Below, piece by piece: positions 11,600 to 58,697 of a stretch of 64,000 bases of DNA. Where the stretch lies: NCBI GenBank assembly GCA_000004985.1, contig GG738861.1, one strand, 5' to 3'. The position numbers and the translations under genes are program-made. The first letter of the stretch is position 1. Each line of letters opens with the position of its first letter. The stretch is from Naegleria gruberi (Eukaryota). Below the pieces are notes generated by a model. That model was not told the origin of the DNA. It saw only the letters and a list, made by a program, of their open reading frames with translations, and did not search any database.

Positions 11600-12180
11600 A
11601 AGAATCAAAAAATATTCACCAAATGGTCCTCTATGGGCATGATGATTTTCGGAGTGGTTTTACATCATGAAACCACCAAACTTTCACATCATCATCTCAA
11701 CATGATCTATATAGTAGTAATAATAGTAATTTTTATTGGTGGATTATCATCATGAAATTGGAATTTATTTTTCATGATGGAAAATCACAATTTGGTGTTC
11801 CATCATCGGATCATTCACCAACCATCATTATTGTTTTCCATCAATATAATAATAGTATTTGTGGAAATTAATTTTTAGTAATGTAATTTTGGTGAAATGT
11901 AAAAATTTTCACTAAATTCATCATCACTGCTGGATCTACTGGACAAGTTGGAAAACTGTCAATGTAGTATTGTTCGGAATGGTCAATAGTAGGTAGGAGA
12001 ACTTTCTCTTATCAATTTTGGTCAAGTTATGATAGGGATAGGTAGATGTGAATTTTGAAAAAGTACATGGATCATAACTCAACATGTACTTCACCAACTT
12101 GAATCATGTCTTTTAGTACTACTATTTAAATAGATAATAAACATCATATTTATTATCAGATTTTCGTCATGTTGTCAATT
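11600..12180 (+). repeat. Dispersed ~0.5-kb non-coding repeat, copy 1 (second copy at 32135..32620)
   Basis: Long stretches are near-identical between the two copies (for example ttttccatcaatataataatagtatttgtggaaattaatttttagtaatgtaattttgg and cactaaatccatcatcactgctg.atctactg.acaagttggaaaactgt.aatgtagtattgttcggaat). Copy 1 carries an extra ~110 bp near 12015-12125. A 23-bp inverted match lies at 10808-10830 versus 11990-12012 (ataggagaactttctcttatcaa). Confidence 0.8.
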
Positions 12181-13197: not shown

Positions 13198-16100
13198 ATG
13201 GCAATAATACAAAGAAGGACTGCAACAATTGCATCCTTGTTGATTATTGTATTATGGTATTGCTTCTGTACTCAACACAGCATTGAGGCGAGTAACCCAA
13301 AAGTAGTGGGTGTCGTATCAACTATTGGAACTGATCAAGATAATGTGAAGACTTTGTATGACTTTGGACCCGATTGGAATGAAGGTACATACGCTTACTG
13401 GGGTGTTTTCAATGGTTTTCAATCAGGAACAATCTTCTTTAATGGTGACACCACCCCATTATTGGCTGGGTTGAATCCATCCAACTATATGTGTGTGGTA
13501 ATGTATTCGTCAAACAAACCCTCAAATGAAATTGTTCAAAAGGGTTGCCTCTATTCATCAAAGCAATTAGATATATTCTCAGCGACTGCATCAGCATACG
13601 GCTTTTATGTTACTGTTAGAAATTTAGGTTCGGTAGTGATGGCTGAGCAAGAATTTCCACCAGGAACATTCATTACAAGATTAAACCTAGAAGCAATAAC
13701 AGTTGAAAATGGGGCCAAAGTTGTTCATTCCAATGCAACCAATTACGTTGCATGGAGTGGTATGGCACGTTTAGATTTCAAGGAAGCTGATTTTTTGGTT
13801 GTGGTTGGTAATGCTCAATGCTCTCTCTCAAGTCAGGATACTGACAAATTAATCTTTGAAGATTCGTCCGAGTTGACTCTTCCACATACATGCGAAATGA
13901 CTTCTTTCGCTGCTCTATACACTGCAACTTATGATTCAATGACCTTGGGAAAAAAGCAAATGATAGAACAAATTAACCAAAGAAGTACATTCATAAAGAA
14001 GGTTATCAAGTCATCTACTACTTCCTTCTGGGTATATGGTAATTTTGTTGACTATACTTTATTTGATAATGAGAGACGCTATGGAAAACAAGCTCCTTTC
14101 TTTAGTTATTATGAAATTGACCCAAGCAATACCCAACCTTTCACACGGAAACACAGTACGTATATTTCTTCGTTTCAACCAACATACTCGGCTGAAGCAA
14201 ACGATATGAAAATAATTCCAGCTGACGGACAAATTGAAATATACATTGTTGGTTATGTGGAAATACCAAGCTCATTTTTATGTTGCTTCTTGAAGATTGG
14301 TACTGCCGAGCCATATCGAGCTAGAAAGCTAGAAATTGAAGGTGATGTAGTATTTACAGGAATAGATACCAACACAAATACTCAAGAAGTAATCGTTACG
14401 GGTCACTTTGCAGGTACAATTCAAATTGGTTCCACCAAATTGACAAGTAGTGGAGGACGAGATATTGTGGTTGCTGCTTTCAAAAGAGTTACTTTAGATG
14501 CTGTTTGGGCTATTAAAGAAGGAGGCTCAAACGATGATTATTCATATGGAATTAAGAATAATAATAATGAATTCATATCAATTTTTGGCAAACTTGGCTT
14601 GAATCCAAAATTTGATGGTAAGAATGTATCTGTTTCTGTGTCAACTGCATCAAACGGATTCATTGCGCATTTATCAGATCCTAATTATTGTTATGGAATT
14701 GCTAGTAATACTGAGACTGTTTGTAATGGTCATGGTCAATGTCAAAAAGATGGCAGTTGCCTTTGTAGTTCAGGTTTTGGAGATCAGTGTGAATTCCCAA
14801 CTTGTAACGAAATACACTTTAATGAAACAAATGTTTGTAATGGGCATGGTAACTGCACTGATTATGATACTTGTTCCTGTAATGATGGATGGACTGGTGC
14901 TAATTGTAATATACCTGTTTGTTTTGGTGTTAGTGAAGGTGAAAGTTGCAGTCAACATGGTTCCTGCATTTCAAATAATACTTGTCAATGTAATAATGGA
15001 TGGTTTGGAAGTAACTGCTCAATTCATTCATGTAATGGAACAAGTTCACAAGATGAGCAAAATATTTGTAATAATGGCAATGGTATATGTGTATCTGCAG
15101 ATATGTGTTCATGTAACCAAAATTGGACAGGTCAATTCTGTGAAATTCCTAAATGTTTTGGATTGAATTCAAGTGATATTTCAGTTTGTTCAAGTCATGG
15201 GCAATGTATTAATGCTAACACTTGTAGTTGTAATAAGGGATGGTTTGGAGCTGATTGTTCAATTCATTCATGTAATGGAACAAGTTCACAAGATGAGCAA
15301 ATCGTTTGTACTAATGGCAATGGTAAATGTGTATCTACAGATATGTGTTTATGCAATCAATATTGGACTGGACAATTCTGTGAAATTCCAAAGTGTTTTG
15401 GATTACCAGCAAACGATTCAAATGTATGTGCTGGTCATGGTAAATGTCTCTCCCCTGATGTTTGTTCTTGTAATCCTAAATGGTTTGGGGCTAAGTGTAA
15501 TTTCCCATCTTGTTTTGGAATTCCATTTTACAATTCTTCAGTTTGTTCCTCCCATGGCCAATGCATAACCTTGGACACATGCAAATGTCTAGATGGATAT
15601 GATGGAGAAACTTGTTCCTCTCATTCATGCTTTGGTTTTAAATCCAATAATGACTCGAGAGCTTGTACGAATGGTCAAGGAAAATGCACAGGTGCTAATC
15701 AATGTACTTGTTTGGAATCCGAAAGTGGAAGAGCAATAGGTCCACAATGTGAAACGATTTTATGTAAGGCAGGAGTTGATATGTGGTTACCACAAAAAGA
15801 TCCAAAAGTTTGTTCTCAACATGGTATATGTAAATTCAACATGTCAACTGTTGGATGTTTTTGTGAGGAAGGTTACGAAGGGCCAATATGTCAGTATCCA
15901 ATCTGCTATGGAATTTCATCGAATTCAAAGAAAGTTTGCAATGGAGTTGGTAAATGTAATGCTCCAAATAACTGTTCATGTTTTGATAATGATATTGATG
16001 GTCACTTTGTTGGAACAAATTGTGACAAGTGTAAAATTCCATACTCTGGAATTAATTGTACTGTTATTGAAAAGTGTAATGCTACATTGAAATGCAATTC

Positions 16101-19100
16101 ACATGGTACATGTGATGACTATGGTTTCTGTACTTGTTTCCAAGACGAAACTAACGGTTATTGGAATGGAACTAATTGTAATACTTGCAATGATGGATTT
16201 TATGGAGAAGATTGCATGACTCAATTGTCCAATGTACATTTCAATAATGAAGGAAATGGATTACTTTTCCAAATGACCTCTCCAAATCATTTCACATCCT
16301 TAAATGTTGATTGTAACAATTTATTAGATTCTTCAAGTATTTCCTCATTTGGTTCAAATGTAGTTTGTAGATATTCTAATAAGACATCCAATGATTTTAT
16401 TATTGAATTGGGAACTGATAATTCTATTCAAGTTGATCAAGAAATTTTATTGAATAGAAATGTGTTTAATAGAAACAAATTAGGAAATGATTATCAATCA
16501 TTCAAAATTGGAAATGCTGAAAATCCCATTCCACCAACAATTTTAATTTCTCAAAAAACAACATATTCAAGTTGTGAAAATATTCTATTGGATGCAAGTG
16601 AAAGTTATTCCACAGATGGAAAACAAATTTCCTATAAATGGGAAATTGTATCTTCCAACATGATGACACTTCCAAACAATAATTCAAGCAAACTGTCAAT
16701 CACCTATGACAGTATAAATGCTGGAAGTCATACTTTCAAACTGACAACTACAAGCCAAAGTTTGAAAACATCCTCATCCAAGCAAATCACATTCCAAAAG
16801 TTGAATTATGCAACACCTGTCATTTCTATTGAAGGAAGTGACAGCCTTTCACTTTCAACAAGCTCATTGCCTTTGATTGTAAGAAAATTAATCACCTTAC
16901 CTTCTTGTTTACCTTCAAAATCTGAAATTATTGTAAAATGGGAATATTTGAGTGGAACTGGAATGGAATATCAAGTTGACTCTACNNNNNNNNNNNNNNN
17001 NNNNNNNNNNNNNNNNNNNNNNNNNNNNNNNNNNNGATGGTTTGGAGCTGATTGTTCAATTCATTCATGTAATGGAACAAGCTCTCAAGATTTACAAAAT
17101 GTTTGTAATGGAGGAAGAGGTCAATGTATTGACACTGATATTTGCTCATGTAATGAAACATGGACAGGTCAATTCTGTGAAATTCCTAAATGTTTTGGAT
17201 GGAATTCAAGTGATAATTCAGTTTGTTCAACTCATGGTCAATGTATTAATGCTAACACTTGTCAGTTGTAATAAGGGATGGTTTGGTAGTAACTGCTCAA
17301 TTCATTCATGTAATGGAACTAGTTCACAAGATGTGCAAAACGTTTGTAATGGAGGAAATGGTCAGTGCATTGGAACAGATTTGTGTTTGTGTAACCAAAA
17401 TTGGGCTGGTCAGTTCTGTACTATTCCTAAATGTTATGGCGTTATTTCTACAGACGCTACAGTTTGCTCTACTCATGGTAACTGTACTGATATTAATACT
17501 TGCCAATGTAATACAGGTTGGTTTGGTCCATTATGTAGTATTCACTCCTGCAATGGAACTAGTTCACAAGATTTAAAACACGTCTGCAATGGTGGTAATG
17601 GAGTATGCATTCAAATGGATAAGTGTGATTGTAAATCTGGTTGGACAGGCCAGTTCTGTGAAATTCCGAAGTGTTTTGGTTTAGCTTCAACTGATAAAAA
17701 AGTGTGTGCTGGTCATGGAGGTTGCATGAGCTCTGATAAATGCTCTTGTAATAATGGATGGTTTGGAGCTGATTGTTCAATTCATTCATGTAATGGAACA
17801 AGCTCTCAAGATTTACAAAATGTTTGTAATGGAGGAAGAGGTCAATGTATTGACACTGATATTTGCTCATGTAATGAAACATGGACAGGTCAATTCTGTG
17901 AAATTCCTAAATGTTTTGGATGGAATTCAAGTGATATTTCAGTTTGTTCAACTCATGGTCAATGTATTAATGCTAACACTTGTAGTTGTAATAAGGGATG
18001 GTTTGGAGCTGATTGTTCAATTCATTCATGTAATGGAACAAGTTCACAAGATGAGCAAATCGTTTGTACTAATGGCAATGGTAAATGTGTATCTACAGAT
18101 ATGTGTTTATGCAATCAATATTGGACTGGACAATTCTGTGAAATTCCAAAGTGTTTTGGATTACCAGCAAACGATTCAAATGTATGTGCTGGTCATGGTA
18201 AATGTCTCTCCCCTGATGTTTGTTCTTGTAATCCTAAATGGTTTGGGGCTAAGTGTAATTTCCCATCTTGTTTTGGAATTCCATTTTACAATTCTTCAGT
18301 TTGTTCCTCCCATGGCCAATGCATAACCTTGGACACATGCAAATGTCTAGATGGATATGATGGAGAAACTTGTTCCTCTCATTCATGCTTTGGTTTTAAA
18401 TCCAATAATGACTCGAGAGCTTGTACGAATGGTCAAGGAAAATGCACAGGTGCTAATCAATGTACTTGTTTGGAATCCGAAAGTGGAAGAGCAATAGGTC
18501 CACAATGTGAAACGATTTTATGTAAGGCAGGAGTTGATATGTGGTTACCACAAAAAGATCCAAAAGTTTGTTCTCAACATGGTATATGTAAATTCAACAT
18601 GTCAACTGTTGGATGTTTTTGTGAGGNNNNNNNNNNNNNNNNNNNNNNNNNNNNNNNNNNNNNNNNNNNNNNNNNNCCAAATGACAGCTAGACCACTAGT
18701 TGTTAACTTGATCCAAATTGAATCAACAATTGACCAAGTAATAATTGAGATTGAAGAAATTGATTCTGATTTGCAAACTATTCCATTCGAAAGAGAATGG
18801 TCCACCAATAATTTGAATAACAATGACAACATATTACAATATCTATCATCTATCAAGAATAATACATTAACAATTACAAAATCATTAGTGAACGGTGCTT
18901 CTCAATTCGACATTTCATTAAGGTCAAGTAAGGTTTCCAGATATTCCACTTCAACTCTCTCCATTTTATTCCCAGAATCTCCTGAACAAATTCCACCTTC
19001 AATAACACCAGCTAACTCGCCTCCATCAAAATTGAATAAGGGAACTTTATTAAGCGTACAAAGTATTGTTTCGAGTGCAAGTAACAATATTATTAGAGAA

Positions 19101-20900
19101 TGGACAATGAATGGTCAATCTATTCCTTCAGAATTGACAAGAAATATGAGAATGCAACTTTCTGAGTCTGACGAATTAATTTTGGACACATCTTCTTTGA
19201 CAGAAGGTGCAACTTATCAAATTTCTTTCAAAGTTACTAATGTTGATTCTTTGTTATCTGCTTCATTGAATCATTCATTTGTAATCAACAAATCACCAAA
19301 ACCATGTGACTGTCAAGTGTCACCTTTGAGTGGTATTGCAATGACAACAATATTTACTTTCAATTGTCCAAAATGTCAAAACGATCAGAATAGTAATACT
19401 TTTGAATATGGTTTTATTGATGACTTTTCAAAATCCAACTTTCCACTTTCTAAAACAGAAGAATTATATCAAAAACTTCCAATGCCAAATTCTGGAAACA
19501 AATTAGATCTTTATGTCAAGGTAATTGATTCATTGACAGGATCTAGCTCCATAACAACCAAACAAGTTACCATTTCTCTTCCGGTTGTCAAAAGTTTAGC
19601 AGGAATCAAAAAGTTAACAGCCTCATGGAACCAAATAGCAACATTGGCTCCTGTTGGTGATTATCAACGAAGTGTTTTCAATACTGCAACCATTTCTAGA
19701 ACAATGAATTTATTATTTAAGAGTATAAGTTCAAAGAGAGATTTTTGTAATGGAAATGGACAATTTAAAGATGGGAAATGTGTTTGCAATTCTGGATTTA
19801 CAACAAGTAATTGTAAATGGTCCACTGAAGATTTTGAATTTATTCAATCTTTAATTAGAGATTTATTGAATGATTTTATGGGTTCAAGTCAAATCATGAC
19901 AACCGCTTCAGAATCAACAAATAGAAATTACATTACAAATTTATTATTTGGATTGAATTCAATTTCACAAAATTCTGAATATCTTTCTAACCAAATGGTC
20001 AACTCTAGTTTAATTTTATTGAGAGATGCTTTGGTATCAGTTCAATCAAGTACCACCTTTGTTCTGTCTAGAGGAGATTTGGTCAACTTGCAAAATATTT
20101 TGAACTTACAAGAAAATTTAATGGATGGTGAAAAATTATTGGAAACTGTTGAATTATTAGGGCAAGTTTTATTGAGAAATGTTTTAATTGGTCAAATACC
20201 ATTTAAATTTGAAACTAACAGTTATTTGACAGTTTTAAACAAACATTTCAAGAATCAAATGAATGGAATGAAATTCGAAAGTGAGATGGTGAATATCACG
20301 TTACCATGGAACATTTCATCTCTCTTGAAAACTAATTCAATCAAGTCACCAATCAAGTACAGATGGAATATTCAAAAAAATACAGACACCATTGCAATTG
20401 CAAATCAACCTGGAAAGATAATATCAATCAATTCAGTTGTGAATAGTTTACAACTTGATCCTTCACCTCAATCTTATTCGAAATACTTATTCGACATTGA
20501 GATGAAACAATACGACAGTCAGGCAGCTTATGTTTGTGCTAACATTGGATCAGCATCATTGGAAACTGATTGTTCCATTTCTATCAAGAATAACCAAATA
20601 GCAACTTGTGAATGCTCTTCATTAGGATATAATCTTGTAATTCTTGAATACAAATCCATTGAAAATCATGTATCAACCTCCTCTTCATCAAATTCAAATA
20701 TAATTGTCAAAAAACCTCCAACGAGCAATCCATTAATGTGGTTATTATTGTTACTAGTCCTCATTCCACTTACTGCCCTACTAATTGCAGTAATTGTATG
20801 GTTTGTAGTAAAGAAACTGGGTAAAGATAAGAATAATACAAGAAATCCATACATGCAAACACAAGAAAGCAGTTCTACAATTGAATTGAAGCATGTTTAA
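13198..20900 (+). CDS. Giant type I membrane glycoprotein: signal peptide, ~430-aa N-terminal domain, more than 20 EGF-like repeats, Ser/Thr-rich stalk, TM helix and short cytoplasmic tail. One gene broken into three ORFs by two assembly gaps
   Basis: ATG at 13198 begins MAIIQRRTATIASLLIIVLWYCFC. ORFs 13198..17271, 16952..18691 and 18507..20900 share architecture and differ in frame only across the N runs at 16986-17035 and 18627-18676. The C-terminus has a TM segment, PLMWLLLLLVLIPLTALLIAVIVWFVV, followed by KKLGKDK... and a TAA stop at 20900. Confidence 0.7.
16986..17035. other. Assembly gap (50 N) inside an EGF tandem-repeat array
   Basis: An N run flanked by near-identical EGF cassettes. 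Confidence 0.95.
18627..18676. other. Assembly gap (50 N)
   Basis: An N run at the end of a ~700-bp block identical to 15170-15880. Confidence 0.95.
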
Positions 20901-21244
20901 TCTCGTTAATAATATGAAAAAGATTAGTTTGATAGGAGACGGTTATGTGATTGTGACTGAAACAACTCCGAAAGTGTCTAATTTGTGGAAATAAACACCA
21001 TTCGAGTCATTCGAGCTCGTAAACCCATGAAGTATAATTTCTGTCTATTATTATTGTATTACATTACGAATCACCACAACATTGAAAAAACACAAAAGAA
21101 TTCACTAAGAGAGCTCAAAATATCTGACATTGCGTTCCTTTCATTTTGGATTTACCTACCGGATAAGTTATAAAAATCGTTTTGGGATCACATATCATGA
21201 ATTTCGTGTCATTGTGAAAATTCTACTATCAAGTCTCATAAAAA

Positions 21245-21585
21245 ATGTTTCCACAACAAGCTCCACGGATTGTGGTAGAGATAAAACTTGGTAACACAGT
21301 TGCTCAATTGTTTCCAGATGGTAGCTTGAGTAATGGTTCAACCAGTATTACTGATTTCAGCGCAGTTGCACTAAACAAGCAAAACAAGCAAGTATGGGGG
21401 TTTGAAAATGACAAAGTTAAAATATTGTGCAATCAAAACCACGTTTGTAGTTATGGTCAAGTCAACCACTTGATAACAGGCAAGGGATTAAATAGGCTTC
21501 GTTCTCTTTACAATCTCGTAATAACAAAATATCTCCAACAACAGCCAAACATCACCGTTCCCAGAACCAATGCTGGTGACACCAN
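21245..21585 (+). CDS. 5' partial CDS of a hypothetical protein, interrupted by a 1020-N gap
   Basis: An ATG-started open frame of 113 codons runs into the gap. No recognisable domain. Confidence 0.3.
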
Positions 21586-22605
21586 NNNNNNNNNNNNNNN
21601 NNNNNNNNNNNNNNNNNNNNNNNNNNNNNNNNNNNNNNNNNNNNNNNNNNNNNNNNNNNNNNNNNNNNNNNNNNNNNNNNNNNNNNNNNNNNNNNNNNNN
21701 NNNNNNNNNNNNNNNNNNNNNNNNNNNNNNNNNNNNNNNNNNNNNNNNNNNNNNNNNNNNNNNNNNNNNNNNNNNNNNNNNNNNNNNNNNNNNNNNNNNN
21801 NNNNNNNNNNNNNNNNNNNNNNNNNNNNNNNNNNNNNNNNNNNNNNNNNNNNNNNNNNNNNNNNNNNNNNNNNNNNNNNNNNNNNNNNNNNNNNNNNNNN
21901 NNNNNNNNNNNNNNNNNNNNNNNNNNNNNNNNNNNNNNNNNNNNNNNNNNNNNNNNNNNNNNNNNNNNNNNNNNNNNNNNNNNNNNNNNNNNNNNNNNNN
22001 NNNNNNNNNNNNNNNNNNNNNNNNNNNNNNNNNNNNNNNNNNNNNNNNNNNNNNNNNNNNNNNNNNNNNNNNNNNNNNNNNNNNNNNNNNNNNNNNNNNN
22101 NNNNNNNNNNNNNNNNNNNNNNNNNNNNNNNNNNNNNNNNNNNNNNNNNNNNNNNNNNNNNNNNNNNNNNNNNNNNNNNNNNNNNNNNNNNNNNNNNNNN
22201 NNNNNNNNNNNNNNNNNNNNNNNNNNNNNNNNNNNNNNNNNNNNNNNNNNNNNNNNNNNNNNNNNNNNNNNNNNNNNNNNNNNNNNNNNNNNNNNNNNNN
22301 NNNNNNNNNNNNNNNNNNNNNNNNNNNNNNNNNNNNNNNNNNNNNNNNNNNNNNNNNNNNNNNNNNNNNNNNNNNNNNNNNNNNNNNNNNNNNNNNNNNN
22401 NNNNNNNNNNNNNNNNNNNNNNNNNNNNNNNNNNNNNNNNNNNNNNNNNNNNNNNNNNNNNNNNNNNNNNNNNNNNNNNNNNNNNNNNNNNNNNNNNNNN
22501 NNNNNNNNNNNNNNNNNNNNNNNNNNNNNNNNNNNNNNNNNNNNNNNNNNNNNNNNNNNNNNNNNNNNNNNNNNNNNNNNNNNNNNNNNNNNNNNNNNNN
22601 NNNNN
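21586..22605. other. Large assembly gap (1020 N)
   Basis: N run. The ORFs predicted across it are artefacts. Confidence 0.95.
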
Positions 22606-23571
22606 ATAAGAGATTGGAGTAAGAGGTATCCGAAGGTTTGCAATACCAAACTCATTTAATGGTTTTGTGAAATAATAAAATTATTATTATTCGGGTCTCT
22701 TCAAAAAAAAATCCTTTACAATGTTATTAGCACCAGAGCCTGCTAAACCTCAGGATGATTGGTTTATTGATGAATGTTTACTTATGAATATTGGCAATCA
22801 ACGACCGAAATATATCTTTCAAACTAAAGAGGGAGATGACATCATTTGGGAAACATTGTTCTTTAATTTCGTTGATGAGCCAAACGTTTAAATATCAAAC
22901 TCTTTCAATGATGGATACAATTACAAAAGATACACAGCAGAGGTGGTGGAAGTGGGAGACTTTGCCAAGAAAAGGGACGACTCTAATGATTGGGCTTTGT
23001 TGAGACTTGTGACTGATGATTTCACAGAAGATTTGAACAATACAGAGTACTTCATTCCTTCTCCAATTAGAACACGTCAAAGACGAAGATGATATTCCAG
23101 ATATCTACACCACGTTAATGATTGGTTTCTTTACAAGAGGTGCCTCAAAAGGAGATCTAAGAGAAACTCAAAGGGAATTGATATTGAAGATGTTTGGAAA
23201 ATTATTCCTGAAGGTATGGCAGTTTCCTTTGGTTGGACTGTACCCTATCCATAATTGTGGAAGTACAGCCAGCTGCTCTGGAGGCCCTTTACTCAAATGT
23301 AGAATCCAAATTAAAGAGCTTGTAGATATTCTGAACCAAAAACCATCTGTTCAGCCTTATTTCCTTATTCGCAAGTAGTTTCATCTCTAGAAGAATCATG
23401 GCTCTCCACAGTGGTGGTGATAACTATTACAAAATAAATAGAAATCCAAAACTTGAAATATTTAAGAGAAATTAGAGCTTGGAATTTTCCAAAAGCAAAA
23501 GCAGATAATTGATTGAAATAAGTACTATGAAATATTGAATGAAGTGTTTATATCGATATTAGTATGGATTT

Positions 23572-26500
23572 TTAAAGCATTAACAAGCACATCATGATTG
23601 AAACCAGTAAGGAAACACTGAACGAAATCATTGCAACGTTGTTGACACGAGCTGAAACCTTTGGAATAAAAGGAGCAGGAGAAGATTTTGGAGAGACAAC
23701 AGGTGTTGGAATAGCCTTTGGTTGAGCAGTTAACAAATATTTGCCAGTTGAAGAGACAGAAACAGTTACAGAGTTACTGGTCTTGGAAATGACTGAACAA
23801 CTGGTTGAGAGTTGATAATTATTGGTTGCTGAATTGTAAACTTGACAATAGACATCATATGCAGAAACCGATCTTGCCATTGTTATATCCTTTGAGGTAG
23901 AGAAGGTCAATTCGGCAATAGAACTTGAACTAGAAACGGTAACTGCAGATTTTTCAGCAAGAGAAATATCAAGAGCATCTGAAACAGAGTTGGTGACTCC
24001 GCCACTTGATGATTTTACCTTAAGAATGAGAGTCTTGTAATTAGAAACAAGATCAGAAAATTTAGCTGCCATTTTGAACTTATTTCCATTAATAATATCT
24101 TGTAAATTATTCAAAGTTGCAATATTGACCTTTCTTGAATAAGTAGTTGTTTGATTAGCAACAATATAGTTGGCTGGAAGGTCAGCAACTGTATCCTTAA
24201 CGAGAGCGCTTGATAAACTGTCATACGTAGCTTGAATATTAGTAATATCAGAATTGGAGAATGATCTCTTTGAAACACCCTTTGCTACAATAAATCTATA
24301 GAATTTATCAGCAGCTTCCTTCGCCTTTGTCAACAGTTCAGTAGCCAATTTAACTTCATCACTCGAAGCAGCATTAGCAGCAGTTTGAGCAAGATTGGTG
24401 ATCATCTTGGAAATAATGTCATCGACAATATATTCCAAACTTGAAGTACCAGAAGAAATCATTGACAATTTAGAGGAGGCAGAGTTAGTATTTTCAGAAG
24501 CAACAGATTGAGCCTTTGCTTGATTGTCCAAATAGGAAAGAATCATATTGGAAGTCAATTTTGCAATTTCAGCTTTTTGCTCAGCAGTTGCACCAGCAAT
24601 AGAGCTAACAACCTTAATGACAGCAGATACGGAAGCAAGGGTTGGTGTTTCCTTCGCAGTTGATTCAATAGAATTCACTGCTTGAGTGGTAGTTGGTTGA
24701 GTAACAGCTACAGAAATTTCAGATTCTGTAAATGCCAACTTGGAATCATAAACTGCAACTTTAAGACGGAGTTGAGAACTGCTTGAAGAAGGTAATTTGA
24801 TTCTTGTAGATCTAGTTTCAGTTCTCTCCGTCAATGCAGTCCAAGAGGATGAAATGTCATCATAATAGAAGAATTGATAGGTAAGTGGCAACTGAGAGTC
24901 TGTCCAACCATTTCCACATTTCAATTCGAATAAGGTACTGAGAGCAACACCAGATTGTGGACTAGCTTCGAAAATACCTCTTGTTGGAGGAGAGTTTACA
25001 TTAACACTTGTTGTAGCAACACCATTCTTTGAACCATCAGTAATATTCAAACTAATAGAGTATGAAGCGCCAGCACTCAACAATGATTTTGGAATCTTGA
25101 TAAAGCTGGAAGTTTGGGTGAGTGATGATAAATCAAACTTATCAGAGAACCAGAAGAAGGTTGGAGATGATAAAACTTCAAGAGAGGAATAGGTCAAATA
25201 CAAATCAGATGATGGGCTAACAAGTGAAAGATCGCTATTAGAAGTAATTGAAGCTCTAATCAAAGTATTCTTTGGAACGGACTTAGCTTTAACAATTAAA
25301 TTAGTTGATGCAGATCTTGATCCCTTAACAACAGTAGCAGTATACTTGTATTCACCAGCAGAGAGGAATGTGGAGAAGGTTCTTTGATTTAAATTTGGAG
25401 AAGAACATGACTTAATGTTGACAATATCAAAACATGTGATAGTGACAGTTTCTGAATCAGACGTACTACTTGGATCAACAACTGCAACAGAGAAATCCAA
25501 TGAATCTTGAGTTGATTGAGTAATGTCAGAAATGTTGAATTGAATAGTCAAATCTTGAGCTACAGCAGTTACCTTGAAAGGAAGAAATGCATCGTTAGCA
25601 TTGTCAGAAACAGCCCTAAGGATAAAGTAATAATCGCCTTCCTTATTAATATCAGTGAAGGATTTACCAATAGCGAATAAATTATTACTAGATTTTGGAG
25701 TTACAACTGATTTAGAGGCTGAAGAAGTATCAACAGAATAGGTATAATCAGTTTGATAATTTCCAGAATAACACTTTGGGAATTTGATGACTGGTGTCAA
25801 TACAATAGTAGATCCAATCATGTAAGTCACAGAAATACCTTCACTGAGTGATAGAGTTGGAACTGGATTGCTAACAACATTCACGGTAACACTTGATGTG
25901 GCAACTTTAGAGAATGCAGTTGTGACAGTAACTTGAATAATGAATGATCCACCAGAAATTGCACTCAATGAAGAGGAGCTGAAATCGACAATAGCGCTTG
26001 AAGTTTTAACACCACTCAAGTAAGTATTCAAAGCATTCATTTCACCAACAGTTGGACCGTTAGTGACATACCAAGAGAATAACAATGCACGACGATCTGA
26101 TGAAACTGATCCAGAAGCATCCAAATATAGAGTATCACACTTGGAAACAGAGCTCTTATCAGAAACTAGATTAACACTTGGAGGAAGTGCAACAAATGTA
26201 CCAGAAGAAACTGTAACAGACAATGTTTCAGCGCTTCCTGGGAATTTGAATAATCTCAAAGAATTACCTGGTACAATATTTGCACTGGTTCCTAATATAA
26301 TTTCCAAAGAGGAAGTTGCAGAATTCAAAATACATTTAGCATCAGAACCTATCAATGATAAATCAGAGCTAGAAATGACATCTGAACAATCTGATTGTTT
26401 CAATAAACTTGATTTGACTTCACCAATAATTGACCCACCAGTTGAAGTGAAAACAAAACTATTAGAATTAATTTGGAAATCACAATTGCTTCCAAACCAT

Positions 26501-28425
26501 CCATTCAAACACTTGGCACAATTACTGGAAGCATCAAAGTTTCCATAACAAGTACATGAGCCATCATTATTACAGTAACCTTTAGAGGAACAATTACTAA
26601 CACTATTACAAGTAATTGAGCAACTGGAACCAACAAATCCACTAGCACATTGATCACAATATGTACCAACAAAGTTACCTTCACAAACACATTTCAAATT
26701 AACACAATTACCTCTGGAATTACAAGTTTGAACTCTATCACAAACTGGAGTGTTACAATTAGCTCCTGAATAATCAAGTGAGCAGCTTGAACAAGATTTA
26801 CCATCATTGTAATTAATTGGACATGAACACTTATTAGGAGCTGAACAAATACCACGAGATGAACAAACACTAGAGCTTGACTTGTCAATTCCATAACAGC
26901 TAAACGTTTGACAAGCTGTACCATTATAACCTTCAGAACAATGACAGATATTTGGAGCAATACATGAACCCTTTCCAGAACAAACTCTATTATCGGTAGC
27001 ACTAATTTCAAAACAAACGGGAATATCACAATTATCACCAACAAAACCATCAACACATTTAGAACAAAACTTGGATGAATCAAAGTTACCATTACAAGAA
27101 CAAACATCCTTTGAAACACATGAACCTCTATACGAACATCCTCCTTGAGATTCACTCAATCCATTACAAGTAGTGTATTGACATCTATCACCAGTGTAAC
27201 CACTATTACATTCACAAGTATTTGGGGCAGTACAATTACCTTGTTTGTTACAACCAGATGTACCTGTTTGATTGTTACAAAGTGGAATAGTACAATCACT
27301 ACCAGTATATCCACTACCACAAACCATAACACTACACTGAGAACCAGTAAAACCTGGATAACAATCACATTGATCTTTTCCTATACATTTACCCTTACTT
27401 GAACAAACAGATGAAGAATTACTCAAAGTATTAAAACATCTTGTTTCAGAACAAGATGGACCTTCCCAACCACTCTTACATGAACATTGATTTAGTGATG
27501 AACAGTTACCATTAGATGAACAAACACTTGATTGATTGGCCAAAATACCAAAACATGAAGTAATTTCACACAACTTGCCATAGAATCCACTATTACATTG
27601 GCAAGTATTTGGACCAACACATTGACCATTTCTTGAACAAACAGTTTGATTGGAGTTGGTTAAACCAGAACAAGAATATGTTTGACATTCAGAACCAATG
27701 TAACCACTCTTACATAAACAGCTATCAACAGAAACACAAGTTCCTGATCCAGAACAAACAGATGAATCAGTAAAATTCTTTCCAAAACATTGATGAATCT
27801 GGCATTCTAATCCACTGTATCCATTATTACATTGACACATATCTTGAGAAATACAAGTACCTTGATTACAAGCTTCAGCTCTTGGCTTAGTGAAACATGT
27901 GATATTCTTTGAGACACAAGTATTTGGAGCAATACATGTATCGTATTGTCCACAGGATTGAGTTTCGTTAGCCAAATAATTATTGCAAATTGGCATGTTA
28001 CAAACACCAGCAGGTCCATAACCTGATTTACATTCGCACTTGTCAAAATCACTGCAGATACCTTTCGAAAAACAAACTTGAGGTGATTGAGAATCGATGC
28101 CATTACAAGTTGTAAAAGAACAATTGTCTCCGTGGTAATTTGTTGAGCAGATACAATCATCGAGACTAGAACATGAACCATGGGATGAACAAACCTTGGA
28201 ATCGTTAGCTGGAGTACCATAACAGGAAGGAATTTCACAGAATTTTCCAATAAATCCATTAACACATATACAACCGCCATCCAGACATGTTCCATTACCA
28301 TTACAGATATTTTCCAAATGAGTAGATCCACATTTAACTGGTTCTGGTTGTGGGGTTTCCGTTGTTGTTTCATTACAGAATGTTCCATTGATATTTGAGT
28401 TACAAATACAGACACCGTTCAACAA
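23572..28425 (-). CDS. C-terminal ~1600 aa of a giant surface glycoprotein: Cys-repeat and EGF-like modules, long Ser/Thr-rich region, C-terminal GPI-anchor-like hydrophobic signal
   Basis: The ORF begins inside a 43-aa repeat unit (CICNSNINGTFCNETTTETPQPEPVKCGST...), so it is not a real N-terminus. It ends ...SARVNNVAMISFSVSLLVSIMMCLLML, which is GPI-signal-like. It is contiguous with 28510..31428 except for two 1-nt homopolymer deletions. Confidence 0.7.
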   Translation of the reverse strand: MLNGVCICNSNINGTFCNETTTETPQPEPVKCGSTHLENICNGNGTCLDGGCICVNGFIGKFCEIPSCYGTPANDSKVCSSHGSCSSLDDCICSTNYHGDNCSFTTCNGIDSQSPQVCFSKGICSDFDKCECKSGYGPAGVCNMPICNNYLANETQSCGQYDTCIAPNTCVSKNITCFTKPRAEACNQGTCISQDMCQCNNGYSGLECQIHQCFGKNFTDSSVCSGSGTCVSVDSCLCKSGYIGSECQTYSCSGLTNSNQTVCSRNGQCVGPNTCQCNSGFYGKLCEITSCFGILANQSSVCSSNGNCSSLNQCSCKSGWEGPSCSETRCFNTLSNSSSVCSSKGKCIGKDQCDCYPGFTGSQCSVMVCGSGYTGSDCTIPLCNNQTGTSGCNKQGNCTAPNTCECNSGYTGDRCQYTTCNGLSESQGGCSYRGSCVSKDVCSCNGNFDSSKFCSKCVDGFVGDNCDIPVCFEISATDNRVCSGKGSCIAPNICHCSEGYNGTACQTFSCYGIDKSSSSVCSSRGICSAPNKCSCPINYNDGKSCSSCSLDYSGANCNTPVCDRVQTCNSRGNCVNLKCVCEGNFVGTYCDQCASGFVGSSCSITCNSVSNCSSKGYCNNDGSCTCYGNFDASSNCAKCLNGWFGSNCDFQINSNSFVFTSTGGSIIGEVKSSLLKQSDCSDVISSSDLSLIGSDAKCILNSATSSLEIILGTSANIVPGNSLRLFKFPGSAETLSVTVSSGTFVALPPSVNLVSDKSSVSKCDTLYLDASGSVSSDRRALLFSWYVTNGPTVGEMNALNTYLSGVKTSSAIVDFSSSSLSAISGGSFIIQVTVTTAFSKVATSSVTVNVVSNPVPTLSLSEGISVTYMIGSTIVLTPVIKFPKCYSGNYQTDYTYSVDTSSASKSVVTPKSSNNLFAIGKSFTDINKEGDYYFILRAVSDNANDAFLPFKVTAVAQDLTIQFNISDITQSTQDSLDFSVAVVDPSSTSDSETVTITCFDIVNIKSCSSPNLNQRTFSTFLSAGEYKYTATVVKGSRSASTNLIVKAKSVPKNTLIRASITSNSDLSLVSPSSDLYLTYSSLEVLSSPTFFWFSDKFDLSSLTQTSSFIKIPKSLLSAGASYSISLNITDGSKNGVATTSVNVNSPPTRGIFEASPQSGVALSTLFELKCGNGWTDSQLPLTYQFFYYDDISSSWTALTERTETRSTRIKLPSSSSSQLRLKVAVYDSKLAFTESEISVAVTQPTTTQAVNSIESTAKETPTLASVSAVIKVVSSIAGATAEQKAEIAKLTSNMILSYLDNQAKAQSVASENTNSASSKLSMISSGTSSLEYIVDDIISKMITNLAQTAANAASSDEVKLATELLTKAKEAADKFYRFIVAKGVSKRSFSNSDITNIQATYDSLSSALVKDTVADLPANYIVANQTTTYSRKVNIATLNNLQDIINGNKFKMAAKFSDLVSNYKTLILKVKSSSGGVTNSVSDALDISLAEKSAVTVSSSSSIAELTFSTSKDITMARSVSAYDVYCQVYNSATNNYQLSTSCSVISKTSNSVTVSVSSTGKYLLTAQPKAIPTPVVSPKSSPAPFIPKVSARVNNVAMISFSVSLLVSIMMCLLML

Positions 28426-28429
28426 GTTC

Positions 28430-31250
28430 CATTATAATAGCAATTATTTTCTTCAACGGTTGATCCACAGTTTAATTGGTTCAGTGGAACAGAGTATTCT
28501 GGTGTGCTTTCATTGCAAATGTTCCGTTAACGTTGTATTGCAAATACAAATACCATTTACACATGTTCCGTTACCATAACAGGCATTTTCTTCCAATGTT
28601 TCACCACATTTAATTGGTTCAGGATGTGGGATAACTGGTTCTGTATTTGTTTCATTGCAATATGTACCATTAATGTTTGAATTACAAATACAGACACCAT
28701 TAATGCAAGTACCATTTCCATAACAAATATTTTCATATTCAGTGATACCACATTTAACAACTGGTTCTGGTTGAGGTGTTGGAGTTTCAGAAGTCTCATT
28801 ACAGAAGGTTCCATTAACGTTTGTATTACAAATACAAATACCATTTACGCATGTTCCATTTCCATAACAATTATTTTCCTCAATGGTTGTTCCACATTTA
28901 ATTGGTTCAGGTTGTGGAATTATTGGTTCAACAATGGTTTCATTACAGAAAGTACCGTTTGAGCCACCTAAACATGAACAAATACCATTCAAACAAGTTC
29001 CATTTCCATAACAATTATTTTCTTCAACGGTTGATCCACATTTAATTGGTTCAGGTTGGGGAATTGGAGTTTCTGGAGTTGTTTCATTACAGAATGTTCC
29101 GTTTACATTAGAGTTGCAAATACAAATACCATTTACACATGTTCCGTTACCATAACAGGCATTTTCTTCCAATGTTTCACCACATTTAATTGGTTCAGGA
29201 TGTGGAGTAACAGGTGCTGATGTTGTTTCATTACAATATGTACCATTAATGTTTGAATTACAAATACAGACACCATTCAAACAAGTTCCATTTCCATAAC
29301 AATTATTCTCATCTTCAGTGAAACCACATTTAACAACAGGTTCTGGTTGAGGCTCATGACTTGTTTCATTACAGAAGGTTCCATTAACGTTGGTAATACA
29401 AACACAAATACCATTCATGCAAGTTCCATTTCCATAACAATTATTTTCTTCAATGGTTGATCCACATTTAACTGGTTCAGTTGGAATTTGAGGTTCTGAA
29501 GCAGTTGTTTCATTACAGTATGTTCCGTTCATACCCTCAACACAGATGCACAATCCATCAAGACATGTGCCGTTACCATAACAATTGCTTTCTTCCTGAG
29601 TTGTACCACAAATAATTGGTTCAGGTTGTGGAGAATCAGAATTTGTTTCATTGCAATATGTACCATTTACGTTTGAATTACAAGCACAGACACCATTGAT
29701 GCAAGTTCCATTTCCGTAACAGTTGTTTTCTTCCATGGTTGATCCACATTTAACTGGTTCAGGATGAGGAATTGGAGTTTCAGGAGTTGTTTCATTACAG
29801 AATGTTCCGTTTACCTTTGAATCACAAACACAAATACCATTTAAACAGGTTCCATTACCGTAACAGTTATTTTCTTCCAATGTTTCACCACATTTGACAG
29901 GTTCTGGTTCTGGAGTAACTGGTTCTGTAGTTGTTTCATTGCAGAATGTGCCATTAACATTCTCAAAACATACACACAAGCCATCAACACAAGTACCATT
30001 TCCAAAACAGTTATTTTCTTCTTCGGTCGAACCACATTTAACTACTGGTTCTGGTTGAGTTGGATCTTGAGTTGTTTCGTTACAGAATGTACCATTCACG
30101 CCAATAAAACAAATACAAACACCCTCAATGCATGTACCGTTACCATAACAAGTATTTTCTTCTATAGTTTCACCACATTTGACAGGCTCAGGAACAACTG
30201 GATCTGGAGATGTTTCGTTACAGAATGTACCATTAATATTCTCGTTGCAAACACACAAACCATCAACACATGTTCCATTTCCGTAGCAGCTATTTTCTTC
30301 TGTTGTTTCGCCACATTTAATTGGTTGAGTTGGAACTTGAGGTTCAGTAGGATTAGTTTCGTTACAGAATGTACCATTAACATCTTGATTACAAACACAG
30401 AATCCATTTACACAACTTCCATTGTTGTAGCAATTATTCTCTTCCAAAGTTTCACCACATTGTAAAGGTTGTGGAATTTCAGGTTCTATATTTGATTCAT
30501 TACAGAATGTACCATTTGCGCCTTCTTTGCAAATACAGGAGCCACCAATACAAGTGCCATTACCATAGCAGTTATTTTCATCTTCTGTAAAACCACATTT
30601 AACTGGCTCTGGTTGAGTTGGGATTTCAGGAGCTGTTTCGTTACAGAAAGTACCATTAGCGCCTTCAATACAAACACACAGTCCATCAAGACATGTTCCA
30701 TTACCATAACAATTACTTTCTTCCTGAGTTGTACCACAAATAATTGGTTCAGGTTGGCTGGGAACTGGACTGGTTTCGTTACAGAATGTACCATTACTAC
30801 CTTCATTGCAAGTACAAAAACCATTCTCACACGTACCATTGCCATAACAATTATTCTCTTCTTCTGTAGTACCACATTTAACCAATTCTGGTTGTGGTTC
30901 CATGCTGAAGGTTTCATTACAAAATGTACCATTAACATTCTCGTTACAAATACACAAACCATCGACACATGTACCATTACCATAACAAATATTTTCATCT
31001 TCTGTGAAACCACAGTTAACTGGTTGAGTAGGGACTTGTGGTTCTTGAGTTGTTTCATTACAGAATGTACCATTCACACCTTCAATACATATGCAGAAAC
31101 CATCGACACATGTACCATTACCATAACAATTTTGTTCTTCCAATGTTTCACCACAAGTGGTAATGGTATCATTACAGAATAAACCAATGAAACCTTCTGA
31201 ACATTGACAAACACCACGAGTACAATTACCATTAGAATAGCAAGATTGTT
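28430..31250. repeat. Tandem array of about 24 x 129-bp coding repeats (43-aa Cys module)
   Basis: The periodicity is visible in both the nucleotide and the protein sequence. Units are roughly 70-95% identical. Confidence 0.85.
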
Positions 31251-31428
31251 CATCTAATGTTTCACCACAGAAAACATCCTGACATTCCATTGTACCCAAG
31301 AGGTCACATGTCTGGGACAATAAACATTCAGTGTCTGAACTGCATGTTGCTGATACGAGACCAACAGCAGCAATTACAGAAAGTACAATTAAAAGTATTG
31401 TTGTTTTGAACAGCAAGTTACTTGCCAT
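28510..31428 (-). CDS. N-terminal part of the same giant gene: signal peptide plus about 22 tandem 43-aa six-Cys repeats, VKCG.T.EEN.CYGNGTC..G.C.C....NGT(F/Y)CNET, with Pro/Thr/Glu linkers
   Basis: ATG at 31428 begins MASNLLFKTTILLIVLSVIAAVGLVSA, a signal peptide. The repeats are highly regular, about 129 nt each, with three N-glycosylation sequons per unit. Confidence 0.75.
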   Translation of the reverse strand: MASNLLFKTTILLIVLSVIAAVGLVSATCSSDTECLLSQTCDLLGTMECQDVFCGETLDEQSCYSNGNCTRGVCQCSEGFIGLFCNDTITTCGETLEEQNCYGNGTCVDGFCICIEGVNGTFCNETTQEPQVPTQPVNCGFTEDENICYGNGTCVDGLCICNENVNGTFCNETFSMEPQPELVKCGTTEEENNCYGNGTCENGFCTCNEGSNGTFCNETSPVPSQPEPIICGTTQEESNCYGNGTCLDGLCVCIEGANGTFCNETAPEIPTQPEPVKCGFTEDENNCYGNGTCIGGSCICKEGANGTFCNESNIEPEIPQPLQCGETLEENNCYNNGSCVNGFCVCNQDVNGTFCNETNPTEPQVPTQPIKCGETTEENSCYGNGTCVDGLCVCNENINGTFCNETSPDPVVPEPVKCGETIEENTCYGNGTCIEGVCICFIGVNGTFCNETTQDPTQPEPVVKCGSTEEENNCFGNGTCVDGLCVCFENVNGTFCNETTTEPVTPEPEPVKCGETLEENNCYGNGTCLNGICVCDSKVNGTFCNETTPETPIPHPEPVKCGSTMEENNCYGNGTCINGVCACNSNVNGTYCNETNSDSPQPEPIICGTTQEESNCYGNGTCLDGLCICVEGMNGTYCNETTASEPQIPTEPVKCGSTIEENNCYGNGTCMNGICVCITNVNGTFCNETSHEPQPEPVVKCGFTEDENNCYGNGTCLNGVCICNSNINGTYCNETTSAPVTPHPEPIKCGETLEENACYGNGTCVNGICICNSNVNGTFCNETTPETPIPQPEPIKCGSTVEENNCYGNGTCLNGICSCLGGSNGTFCNETIVEPIIPQPEPIKCGTTIEENNCYGNGTCVNGICICNTNVNGTFCNETSETPTPQPEPVVKCGITEYENICYGNGTCINGVCICNSNINGTYCNETNTEPVIPHPEPIKCGETLEENACYGNGTCVNGICICNTTLTEHLQ

Positions 31429-32739: not shown

Positions 32740-34310
32740 ATAAAGTAAAGTATTCAGATTGATTTTAATTTTACATAATAGTTTTATTACAAACAAGTTT
32801 TTGTTGTTTGTTTGGGAGAATTGAATTGTTTCAAAATCAATAGATTTAGAAACACTTTCTGTGGACAATACCTGGACCGGCATCCTCATATTCTTCCTTG
32901 GTGATCCACATTTGTTGGAAAGTGGACAATGAAGCCAAGATGGAACCACCAATCCAGACAGAGTACTTTCTTTCAGGTGGAGCAACAACCTTAATCTTCA
33001 TGGAAGCTGGAGCCATAGCAGTCAATTCCTTGGTCATTCTTTCAGCAATACCTTCGAACATAGTAGTACCACCAGACAAGACAACGTTACCGTACAAGTC
33101 CTTTCTGATATCAATATCACATTTACCAATAGAGTTGAAAGTAGTTTCATGAACACCAGCAGCTTCCATACCAATGAAGTTTGGTTGGAACAAAACTTCT
33201 GGACATCTGAATCTTTCATTACCAACAGTGATAACATTACCGTCTGGCAATTCGTATGACTTTTCAACAGATGATGATTCAGCAGCAACCTTCATTTCAG
33301 CTTCGAAATCCAAAGCAATATAACAGAGCTTTTCCTTAATATCTCTGACGATTTCTCTTTCAGCAGTAGTATTGAATGAGTAACCTCTTTCCATCAAAAT
33401 CTTCATCAAGTAATCAGTCAAATCACGGCCAGCCAAATCCAATCTCAAAATGGCGTGTGGCAAAGCATAACCTTCATAAATTGGAACAGTGTGGGAAACA
33501 CCATCACCAGAGTCCAAAACAATACCAGTGGTTCTACCAGAAGCATACAAGGACAAGACAGCTTGAATAGCGACATACATAGCTGGAACTGAGAAGGTTT
33601 CAAACATAATTTGAGTCATCTTTTCTCTGTTTGCCTTTGGATTCAAAGGAGCTTCAGTCAACAAGACTGGGTGTTCTTCTGGAGCAACTCTCAATTCATT
33701 GTAGAAAGTGTGATGCCAGATCTTTTCCATATCGTCCCAATTGGTAACAATACCGTGTTCAATTGGATACTTCAAAGTCAAAATACCTCTCTTTGATTGA
33801 GCTTCATCACCAACATAGGCATCCTTATTACCCATACCAACCATAATGGACTTTTGCTTTGGTCTACCAATAATTGAAGGGAAGACAGCTCTTGGAGCAT
33901 CATCACCAGCAAAACCAGCTTTACACATACCAGAACCGTTATCGACAACGAGGGCTTGAACGTCTTCACAGAATGACATTTTATAGATTATTTGAATGGA
34001 TTTGTTTTTTTTGATTTTTAATTGATGATTTGTGTGTTAAAAAAATATTTAAATGAAAAATTAATGAAAGAATGATTGATGTGATTGATGGCAAGTCAAA
34101 TTGAAGTTTTAAAAAACTATTTTAGAGGTCATTTTTTAAATGTGGAAAGTCAAGTGAAGAAGAACAACTTTACAATATGACTTTTCATTCTTTTCATTCA
34201 ACACATCATCAAAATTACTAGCAATCAACTGTAAAATTTAACACATCAAACATTGCTTTGTCAACTTACTGTAATTTTCAACGTGGAAAAAATTCATCAA
34301 GTTTGAATGA
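32740..34310. repeat. Left arm (~1.57 kb) of an inverted duplication containing an actin gene
   Basis: This arm is the reverse complement of 40160..41730. The flanks match (for example ctattttagaggtcattttttaaatgtggaaagtcaagtgaagaagaac) and the 3' flank matches for ~100 bp past the stop. Confidence 0.85.
32846..33979 (-). CDS. act: Actin (377 aa, intronless)
   Basis: Sequence begins [41 protein letters not shown]...IVHRKCF. It is a canonical conventional actin, closest to amoebozoan actins. Confidence 0.95.
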
Positions 34311-40159: not shown

Positions 40160-41730
40160 TTTATCAAACTTGATGAATTTTTTCCATGTTGAAAATTACA
40201 GTAAGTTGTTAATTGCAATGTTTGCTGATTGTTTGCTCGTAATGTTTGATGATGTGTTGAATGAAAATAATGAAAAGTCATATTGTAAAGTTGTTCTTCT
40301 TCACTTGACTTTCCACATTTAAAAAATGACCTCTAAAATAGTTTTTTAAACTTCAATTTGACTTGCCATCAATCACATCAATCATTCTATCATTAATTTT
40401 TCATTTAAATATTTTTTTAACACACAAATCATCAATTAAAAATCAAAAAAAAACAAATCCATTCAAATTCTATAAAAATGTCATTCTGTGAAGACGTTCA
40501 AGCCCTCGTTGTCGATAACGGTTCTGGTATGTGTAAAGCTGGTTTTGCTGGTGATGATGCTCCAAGAGCTGTCTTCCCTTCAATTATTGGTAGACCAAAG
40601 CAAAAGTCCATTATGGTTGGTATGGGTAATAAGGATGCCTATGTTGGTGATGAAGCTCAATCCAAGAGAGGTATTTTAACTTTGAAGTATCCAATTGAAC
40701 ACGGTATTGTTACCAATTGGGATGATATGGAAAAGATCTGGCATCACACTTTCTACAATGAATTGAGAGTTGCTCCAGAAGAACATCCAGTCTTGTTGAC
40801 TGAAGCTCCTTTGAATCCAAAGGCCAATAGAGAAAAGATGACTCAAATTATGTTTGAAACTTTCTCAGTTCCAGCTATGTACGTCGCTATTCAAGCTGTC
40901 TTGTCCTTGTATGCTTCTGGTAGAACTACTGGTATTGTTTTGGACTCTGGTGATGGTGTTTCCCACACTGTTCCTATCTATGAAGGTTATGCTTTGCCAC
41001 ACGCCATCTTGAGATTGGATTTGGCTGGTCGTGATTTGACTGATTATTTGATGAAGATTTTGATGGAAAGAGGTTATTCATTCAATACTACTGCTGAAAG
41101 AGAAATTGTCAGAGATATTAAGGAAAAGCTCTGTTATATTGCTTTGGATTTCGAAGCTGAAATGAAGGTTGCTGCTGAATCATCATCAGTTGAAAAGTCA
41201 TACGAATTGCCAGATGGTAATGTTATCACTGTTGGTAACGAAAGATTCAGATGTCCAGAAGTCTTGTTCCAACCAAACTTCATTGGTATGGAAGCTGCTG
41301 GTGTTCATGAAACTACTTTCAACTCCATTGGTAAATGTGATATTGACATCAGAAAGGACTTGTACGGTAACGTTGTCTTGTCTGGTGGTACTACTATGTT
41401 CGAAGGTATTGCTGAAAGAATGACCAAGGAATTGACTGCTATGGCTCCTGCTTCAATGAAGATTAAGGTTGTTGCTCCACCTGAAAGAAAGTACTCTGTC
41501 TGGATTGGTGGTTCCATCTTGGCTTCATTGTCCACTTTCCAACAAATGTGGATCACAAAGGAAGAATATGAGGATGCCGGTCCAGGTATTGTTCACAGAA
41601 AGTGTTTCTAAATCTATTGATTTTGAAACAATTCAATTCTCCCAAACAAACAACAAAAACTTGTTTGTAATAAAACTATTATGTAAAATTAAAATCAATC
41701 TGAATACTTTTTGTGTTGCGAAAGAGAAAT
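40160..41730. repeat. Right arm of the actin-containing inverted duplication
   Basis: Reverse complement of 32740..34310. Confidence 0.85.
40478..41611 (+). CDS. act: Actin (377 aa), second copy, protein identical to the 32846..33979 copy
   Basis: The protein is identical. Off-frame ORFs differ at a few residues, so the nucleotide differences are synonymous. Confidence 0.95.
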
Positions 41731-58640: not shown

Positions 58641-58697
58641 AAAATCTTTGTAAAGCCAATAAGAAGGTTTAATTGGCAACAAGATCGATAATTGGAA

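Follow-up and report, generated by a model that had tools for sequence, protein, structure and literature searches.

Two adjacent open reading frames near a Naegleria gruberi telomere are halves of one giant EGF-REJ surface-protein gene, with the frame broken in a short patch of the draft sequence

REJ domains are found in large modular extracellular proteins such as polycystin-1, PKDREJ and the sea-urchin receptor for egg jelly, and tandem EGF repeats of 31 amino acids (aa) in the teneurins and tenascins (PF25024, PF23106, PF18720). Both elements are combined in giant surface proteins of Naegleria. Here we describe a gene in a 64,000-nucleotide (nt) stretch of Naegleria gruberi NEG-M DNA (contig GG738861.1; this whole stretch is called the window below), which reads as a new, unannotated member of the Naegleria-specific family of giant EGF-REJ surface proteins. 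The gene appears as two adjacent open reading frames (ORFs) on the minus strand, ORF A and ORF B. We find that these are the halves of one surface-protein gene of ~2,620 aa, interrupted within a patch of 113 nt. The best explanation, to which we assign a probability of about 0.58, would be a single intact gene whose frame was broken by a low-quality or mis-merged consensus in the draft.

With polycystin-1, PKDREJ and the receptor for egg jelly the protein shares a REJ domain far above threshold (134.1 bits against a cut-off of 25, E=7×10−39 in a Pfam scan), a large modular extracellular build and predicted glycosylation. With teneurins and tenascins it shares tandem EGF repeats, which pass the thresholds of these families in each of the two ORFs (EGF_TEN scores 135.9 and 160.8 bits at a cut-off of 65, EGF_Teneurin 123 and 219 bits). 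At E≤0.01 the scan returned only EGF families and REJ, and no GPS, PLAT, FN3, fibrinogen or YD domains. Unlike polycystin-1 and PKDREJ, the target therein had no GPS/GAIN, PLAT or polycystin channel domains; hydropathy gave no internal transmembrane segment, and no solved structure matched the C-terminal 975 aa in a sequence search of the PDB. The intracellular domain, type II membrane anchor and YD shell of teneurins did not appear in the scan, nor did the FN3 repeats and fibrinogen globe of tenascins. We read the protein as sharing a domain with the polycystins without being one, and as having only the repeat type in common with teneurins and tenascins.

The closest relatives came from Naegleria. 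A phmmer search (full HMMER search) with the C-terminal 975 aa against 1.84 billion representatives yielded 495 matches, 20 of them at E<1×10−30, and in the best matches, at 33-43% identity, query residues 1-945 aligned with the final ~950 residues of proteins that are 1,500-2,650 aa long. Ten relatives were looked up: seven from N. gruberi [EFC47371 (XP_002680115), EFC39663, EFC49938, EFC50530, EFC43684, EFC35887 and EFC44302], one from N. lovaniensis (KAG2377469), one from N. fowleri (KAF0975103) and one unnamed protein of the Joint Genome Institute (JGI). The Naegleria entries are annotated only as 'predicted protein'. Family members resemble the target end to end over a C-terminal region of ~930-950 aa (REJ plus Ser/Thr-rich tail) and, after repair of its frame, also in the succession of leader, variable Cys-rich part, teneurin-type EGF repeats, REJ region and anchor. 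Like the target, EFC47371 and EFC39663 terminate in a hydrophobic tail with nothing after it, whereas EFC50530 and KAG2377469 carry a transmembrane helix and a basic cytoplasmic tail. The target differs from the rest of the family in that it has no gene model and a broken frame, and in a 22-unit module of EGF plus PEP linker that was not found in the other proteins searched, the best of which outside were 32-33% identical. Two further EGF-REJ genes of the window (2770-8016 and 13198-20900) are 22-28% identical to the target outside the EGF part.

ORF A (28510..31428, 972 aa) has an ATG start and ORF B (23572..28425, 1,617 aa) a nominal TTG start. Both were present on the minus strand where the original prediction, made from the letters of the window and a list of their ORFs, had placed them. 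It had claimed that a Cys-rich repeat continues from one ORF into the other, and this proved correct. Tandem Repeats Finder reported a single array (28364..31140, period 144) that extends across the inter-ORF gap. Each unit consists of one EGF-like module with six Cys (kCGeTxEEnnCYGNGTCxnGxCxCxxnvNGTFCNET) followed by a Pro/Glu/Thr linker, and alignment of the unit DNA distinguished 19 intact units (138-144 nt each) from two junction units, J1 (28611-28473) and J2 (28472-28336). We built a profile hidden Markov model (HMM) from 18 intact units, and this covered the junction in model order over three frames, with E-values of the pieces from 1×10−16 to 1×10−9. In the ORF frame profile positions 1-27 matched; NVNGTF followed in a second frame, then positions 33-43 together with positions 1-18 of the next unit in a third, and the ORF frame resumed with positions 18-48. 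The repeat is still encoded, in other frames, in the 84 nt between the ORFs and in the last 25 nt of ORF A. Continuity of the repeat over the break is far beyond chance. Over its first 75 nt J1 does not differ from unit u15; unique sequence near the junction is found in the linker of u18 (AATACAGAACCAGTTATCCCACAT) and in the segment of ORF B encoding KCGSTHLENICNG.

The original prediction had attributed the break to two 1-nt deletions, both of them length errors in T runs. However, ORFs A and B are in the same frame [(31428−28425) mod 3=0], so two 1-nt deletions cannot explain the break, and with the two proposed T insertions a stop remained at codon 983 (56 stops in total). The positions given for them, ~28505 and ~28436, were 12-15 nt away from actual lesions at 28519 and 28422. 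Inserting three bases, namely A in ACA^AC (~28534), T in ACATT^TGC (~28519) and T in TGTT^GAAC (~28422), joined the ORFs into one of 2,619 aa, in keeping with the ~2600 aa that had been predicted, and gave junction units of 47 aa and 46 aa. At the first site, which the original prediction had overlooked, the window reads AATACA-ACGTT where sister units have ACAAAC; this is an A run, not a T run. The runs at the lesion sites are only 2-4 nt long, and the 381 other runs of the gene (321 of 3 nt, 56 of 4 nt and 4 of 5 nt, none longer) are unaffected.

The three edits leave the J1 linker as ...PLNQLNCG, in which the conserved GAACCAATTAAA (EPIK) is read as LNQLN. The underlying DNA, TGAACCAATTAAA, is the conserved GAA CCA ATT AAA (EPIK) out of frame. 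In the unit DNA alignment this corresponds to a compensating pair, one base (or 4 nt) lost at CCAC|TGAACC (~28484) and an extra C in AAA[C]TGTGG at 28470, and with five edits the junction takes the consensus form ...CNESTPEYSVPPEPIKCGSTVEEN... (...PPEPIKCG...). Consensus-like forms of the lesion sites are AATACAAACGTT, ACATT[T/C]TGCAAT, CCACC(T)GAACCAATTAAATGTGG and ACTTGTTTGAACGG. The tally is probably four single-base deletions and one insertion in 28422-28534, that is, at least three ORF-breaking deletions and probably five indels. The J1 linker also has unusual substitutions (ES..YSV), and ORF A ends in the frame-shifted residues TTLTEHLQ-stop. The rest of the gene (~7.7 kb) has no stops and no frameshifts, and its repeat Cys pattern, signal peptide and tail are intact; of the signs of decay looked for there (stops, frameshifts, lost conserved Cys) none was seen. 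The chance that lesions cluster within 113 of 7,857 nt is ~6×10−4 for three random sites and ~2×10−7 for five. Coordinates of all features of the gene are given in Table 1.

Table 1. Features of the split EGF-REJ gene, in window coordinates
Feature	Position	Strand	Evidence and remarks
Whole gene	23572..31428	−	one frame of 2,619 codons after three 1-nt repairs; giant EGF-REJ surface protein (predicted)
Signal-peptide-like segment MASNLLFKTTILLIVLSVIAAVGLVSA	31348..31428	−	hydropathy scan; one of just two hydrophobic segments
Tandem array, 22 units of 138-144 nt (46-48 aa)	28336..31272	−	crosses the ORF A/ORF B break; EGF_Teneurin 219 bits
Defective patch, 113 nt	28422..28534	−	holds all frame-disrupting lesions and in-frame stops at 28512, 28455, 28446 and 28434
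Lesion 1	28533..28534	−	AATACAACGTT against AATACAAACGTT in other units; one A missing
Lesion 2	28517..28519	−	ACATT-TGC against ACATT[C/T]TG in other units; one base missing
Probable compensating −1/+1 pair	28470..28484	−	EPIK codons out of frame between both sites
Lesion 3	28421..28422	−	ACTTGT-TGAACGG against ACTTGTTTGAATGG in other units; one T missing
Teneurin/tenascin-type EGF array, period ~31 aa	26475..28335	−	ORF B ~31-650; Pfam EGF_TEN 135.9 bits, EGF_Teneurin, EGF_2
REJ (PF02010), best stretch	24628..25368	−	ORF B 1020-1266, inside the ~950-aa region shared with paralogs
Hydrophobic tail VAMISFSVSLLVSIMMCLLML	23575..23637	−	hydropathy; the stop codon comes next; paralogs P0018 and P0019 have tails of this kind

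The two ORFs had been described as annotated. Three segments of the repaired protein (residues 1-420, residues 694-1194 with the mended junction, and residues 1645-2619) were searched against a collection of 5.8 billion proteins, and none gave a near-identical N. gruberi protein. The exact product of ORF A was not found among public proteins either, whereas products of neighbouring genes were present exactly. The gene is unannotated and has no public gene model. The sole near-identical protein match was a 582-aa fragment of the C-terminal part (P0001) from a metagenome contig in ENA (ERZ929261, here L001), which is 99.4% identical to window positions 23503-25308. Four synonymous and six nonsynonymous differences separate the two, too few to decide on constraint. 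Beyond window position 25308, in the upstream direction, the match stops and L001 (1..973) contains an unrelated locus, comprising another gene and an intergenic region. Either a different Naegleria strain carries the 3′ half of the gene as a truncated copy, or the metagenome assembly is chimeric. A scan of metagenome DNA for an independent copy of the junction returned only a chance 22-mer in an unrelated contig of 51% G+C.

The original prediction of one gene split by frameshifts stood up against the alternatives that would leave both ORFs functional as they are. Two separate genes, a secreted 972-aa repeat protein (ORF A) and a separate EGF-REJ protein (ORF B), would account for the presence of two long ORFs, of which ORF A has its own ATG and signal peptide. 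However, ORF B begins within a repeat unit, is without Met for ~150 codons and has no signal peptide of its own although it is Cys-rich and extracellular in type. The DNA between the ORFs and at the end of ORF A encodes the repeat in other frames, the terminal residues of ORF A are frame-shifted junk, and in all paralogs the homologous parts lie on a single chain, one long protein that ends with the region homologous to the C-terminal 950 aa of ORF B. Because the repeat tiles the junction, and only ORF A has the signal peptide and only ORF B the terminal hydrophobic tail, the architecture is that of a single gene, and we regard two genes as very improbable. We give even less credit to a biological bridging of the patch, by an intron that removes it or by programmed ribosomal frameshifting. 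N. gruberi has introns, and in-frame GT...AG pairs that cover all stops do exist, but the shortest of them spans 204 nt, equal to 1.4 repeat units of coding-like sequence, with a non-consensus donor (GTATTTGC) and a purine/C-rich acceptor (CCACAACCAG); compared with the ~57 nt of a genuine intron of the window, and with no consensus donor or acceptor, an intron was rejected. Frameshifting was rejected as well, as it would be needed three to five times in 113 nt, where there are no slippery sites.

With a single gene established, the choice lies between a sequencing error and a recent lesion. The original prediction had posed the same question, rightly in our view, and the clustering of the lesions and the poor quality of the draft favour error. 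Genes split by frameshifts in draft assemblies and subtelomeric pseudogenes both share with this locus adjacent ORFs on the same strand, homology that carries on past the break in other frames, lesions that coincide with short mononucleotide runs and a chromosome end nearby. Unlike in those cases, the lesions here lie in one 113-nt patch with a net frame change of zero, and a local consensus-quality problem fits this better than gradual decay. Since the patch sits in an array with units up to 100% identical over 75 nt, read placement is ambiguous, and because the first 75 nt of J1 equal u15, reads may have been misplaced or alleles mis-merged. The draft around the gene has four runs of N (1862-1911, 16986-17035, 18627-18676 and 21585-22605), all of them at most 27 kb from the gene. 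In the paralog at 13198..20900 (plus strand), a single extra C at ~17264, ACTTGT[C]AGTTGTAA (ACTTGT[C]AGTTG), breaks the frame 228 nt after the gap that ends at 17035, and of the seven closest annotated N. gruberi paralogs that were looked up, two carry the flag 'partial'. An artefact is therefore favoured, by the tight clustering of the lesions and by a poor surrounding draft with four gaps and a paralog indel near a gap. Dropped bases mixed with one non-homopolymer insertion, in very short runs, point to poor base-calling rather than to a systematic homopolymer bias; homopolymer error of the 454 or nanopore kind was rejected on the same grounds, and because the 381 other runs are unaffected. 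On balance we lean towards a consensus artefact rather than a real mutation in the patch. The interruption of the frame in this sequence is confined to 28422-28534, with the three single-base deletions and probably the further −1/+1 pair. The gene would then be intact in the organism, and annotation would probably have skipped the gene because of these consensus errors.

A genuine pseudogene is possible, though distinctly less probable. A once-single gene would have been inactivated in NEG-M by a local burst of small indels and would now be a decaying subtelomeric copy; possible causes of the burst are error-prone repair, template switching and, between neighbouring units, misaligned gene conversion. 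The patch as sequenced does contain four in-frame stops, the gene lies among paralogs that include a telomere-truncated copy, neither a gene model nor a transcript-derived protein is known, tandem repeats are prone to slippage and unequal conversion, and the comparison with the second strain (L001) is compatible with neutrality. But with the remaining 7.7 kb flawless, inactivation must have been extremely recent and yet have involved three to five separate indels; such clustering is unexpected from independent mutations, and the draft has the same type of indel beside a gap in a paralog. Several points nevertheless weigh against a consensus artefact. Five consensus errors in 113 nt need very poor local coverage, and the case for them is inferential, as neither the protein searches nor the metagenome DNA scan yielded independent reads, transcripts or a second assembly of the patch. 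Subtelomeres are rich in decaying copies, and a truncated paralog abuts the telomere in this same window. The ES..YSV substitutions in the J1 linker could be real decay, and the four synonymous and six nonsynonymous differences from L001 do not demonstrate purifying selection. A silent pseudogene would also give the result obtained with the 5.8-billion-protein collection, in which there was no gene model product or transcript-derived protein. If the lesions are real, the chromosome end would hold a cluster of EGF-REJ genes, one intact, one frame-broken and one telomere-truncated, and might, as a very speculative extension, act as a reservoir of silent or variant surface genes. Were that true, Naegleria subtelomeres would diversify or switch surface genes by recombination between repeats, loosely like the subtelomeric contingency families of parasites.

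Under the preferred reading of one intact gene, the encoded protein would consist of a signal peptide, 22 EGF plus Pro/Glu-linker units, ~17-20 teneurin-type EGF repeats and REJ. The chain would close with a region rich in Ser/Thr and a hydrophobic tail, which a glycosylphosphatidylinositol (GPI) anchor probably replaces. Residues 5-30 (in ORF A) and 2599-2619 (the C-terminus of ORF B) are the only hydrophobic segments of the repaired protein. It contains 238 Cys, 228 of them within the first 1,660 residues, and 79 N-x-S/T sequons, of which 62 fall in the first 1,040 residues (~3 per unit). The C-terminal 900 aa are 28-30% Ser+Thr. N-glycosylation is thus predicted from the sequons, with which the label of glycoprotein in the original prediction is consistent. 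The features expected of a GPI-anchored protein that we saw are the N-terminal MASNLLFKTTILLIVLSVIAAVGLVSA and a C-terminus ...SARVNNVAMISFSVSLLVSIMMCLLML that runs directly into the stop codon with no cytoplasmic residues. Since the hydrophobic tail ends the protein, as in EFC47371 and EFC39663, a GPI-attachment signal is plausible; the candidate omega sites (S/A in KVSAR, N in VNN), judged by eye, have poor omega+2 residues. Judged by composition and domain content, the protein probably serves in adhesion or recognition at the cell surface, as an extended molecule with heavy glycosylation.

The result is of modest practical value. The public proteome lacks the largest gene of the scaffold's last 31 kb, apparently because the 113-nt patch breaks its frame. 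Repair would add one more member, probably GPI-anchored and with a unique 22-unit EGF/linker module, to a family also represented in N. lovaniensis and the pathogen N. fowleri. The case shows that support from the reads is needed before a repeat-rich subtelomeric gene of this draft is called a pseudogene. Should the lesions be real, one more subtelomeric pseudogene would be added; under either outcome current understanding is unchanged.

The window is the telomeric end of a 507,294-bp scaffold of the N. gruberi NEG-M draft genome of 2010, a draft with 15,727 curated genes (PMC9081340), and has a G+C content of ~33%. Positions 1..554 are filled by ~92 tandem CCCAAA units (TTTGGG on the other strand) with few variant units, forming a telomere at the scaffold end. 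The gene lies 23-31 kb from it and is subtelomeric, as the original prediction had proposed. The array is apparently the telomere repeat of N. gruberi. A 2013 survey of eukaryotic telomeres listed no information as available for Naegleria (PMC3622300). For D. fasciculatum and P. pallidum, telomere repeats other than this one have been reported.

Three giant EGF-REJ members and one truncated copy, mutually divergent at 22-28% identity outside the EGF part, fill nearly all of the terminal 31 kb (600..31428). The truncated copy (555..1861, minus strand, adjoining the N gap at 1862-1911) encodes an EGF/REJ fragment; an internal stretch of the protein from ORF 2770..8016 (minus strand) is nearly identical to it. 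Its coding frame runs directly into the telomere, so that either the end was healed inside a duplicated copy or the assembly was joined there. The gene at 13198..20900 (plus strand) has EGF, K319L-like PKD, REJ and transmembrane parts and is interrupted by two 50-N gaps; the segment between them repeats the EGF units of 14,900-16,400 at ~83% identity.

Several intronless ORFs of the window are exact GenBank proteins of N. gruberi NEG-M (EFC45734, EFC45735, EFC45850, EFC45851, EFC45853 and a 377-aa actin). Actin and actin-related genes lie at 32846..33979 (minus strand), 40478..41611 (plus strand) and 48814..50001 (minus strand): two are intronless, oppositely oriented and have identical Pfam actin matches, and the gene for an actin-related protein is nearby. 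At least the first actin gene encodes exactly the 377-aa N. gruberi actin, which is listed under four GenBank accessions. The same actin protein is encoded on a Logan contig (L003, SRR3922091) with a DNA identity of only 96.4-96.7%. The genuine intron of the window (~60728..60784, plus strand, ~57 nt) is AT-rich, reads GTAAGT...TTGTAAAG (GTAAGT...AAAG) and lies in a subtilase gene; the overlap of ORFs 58692-60776 and 60766-61491 (subtilase-like, GTSMATP) is explained by it and not by a frameshift. Two further ORFs, 52234-53748 and 53676-54782 (together 52234..54782, plus strand), overlap by 73 nt in different frames.

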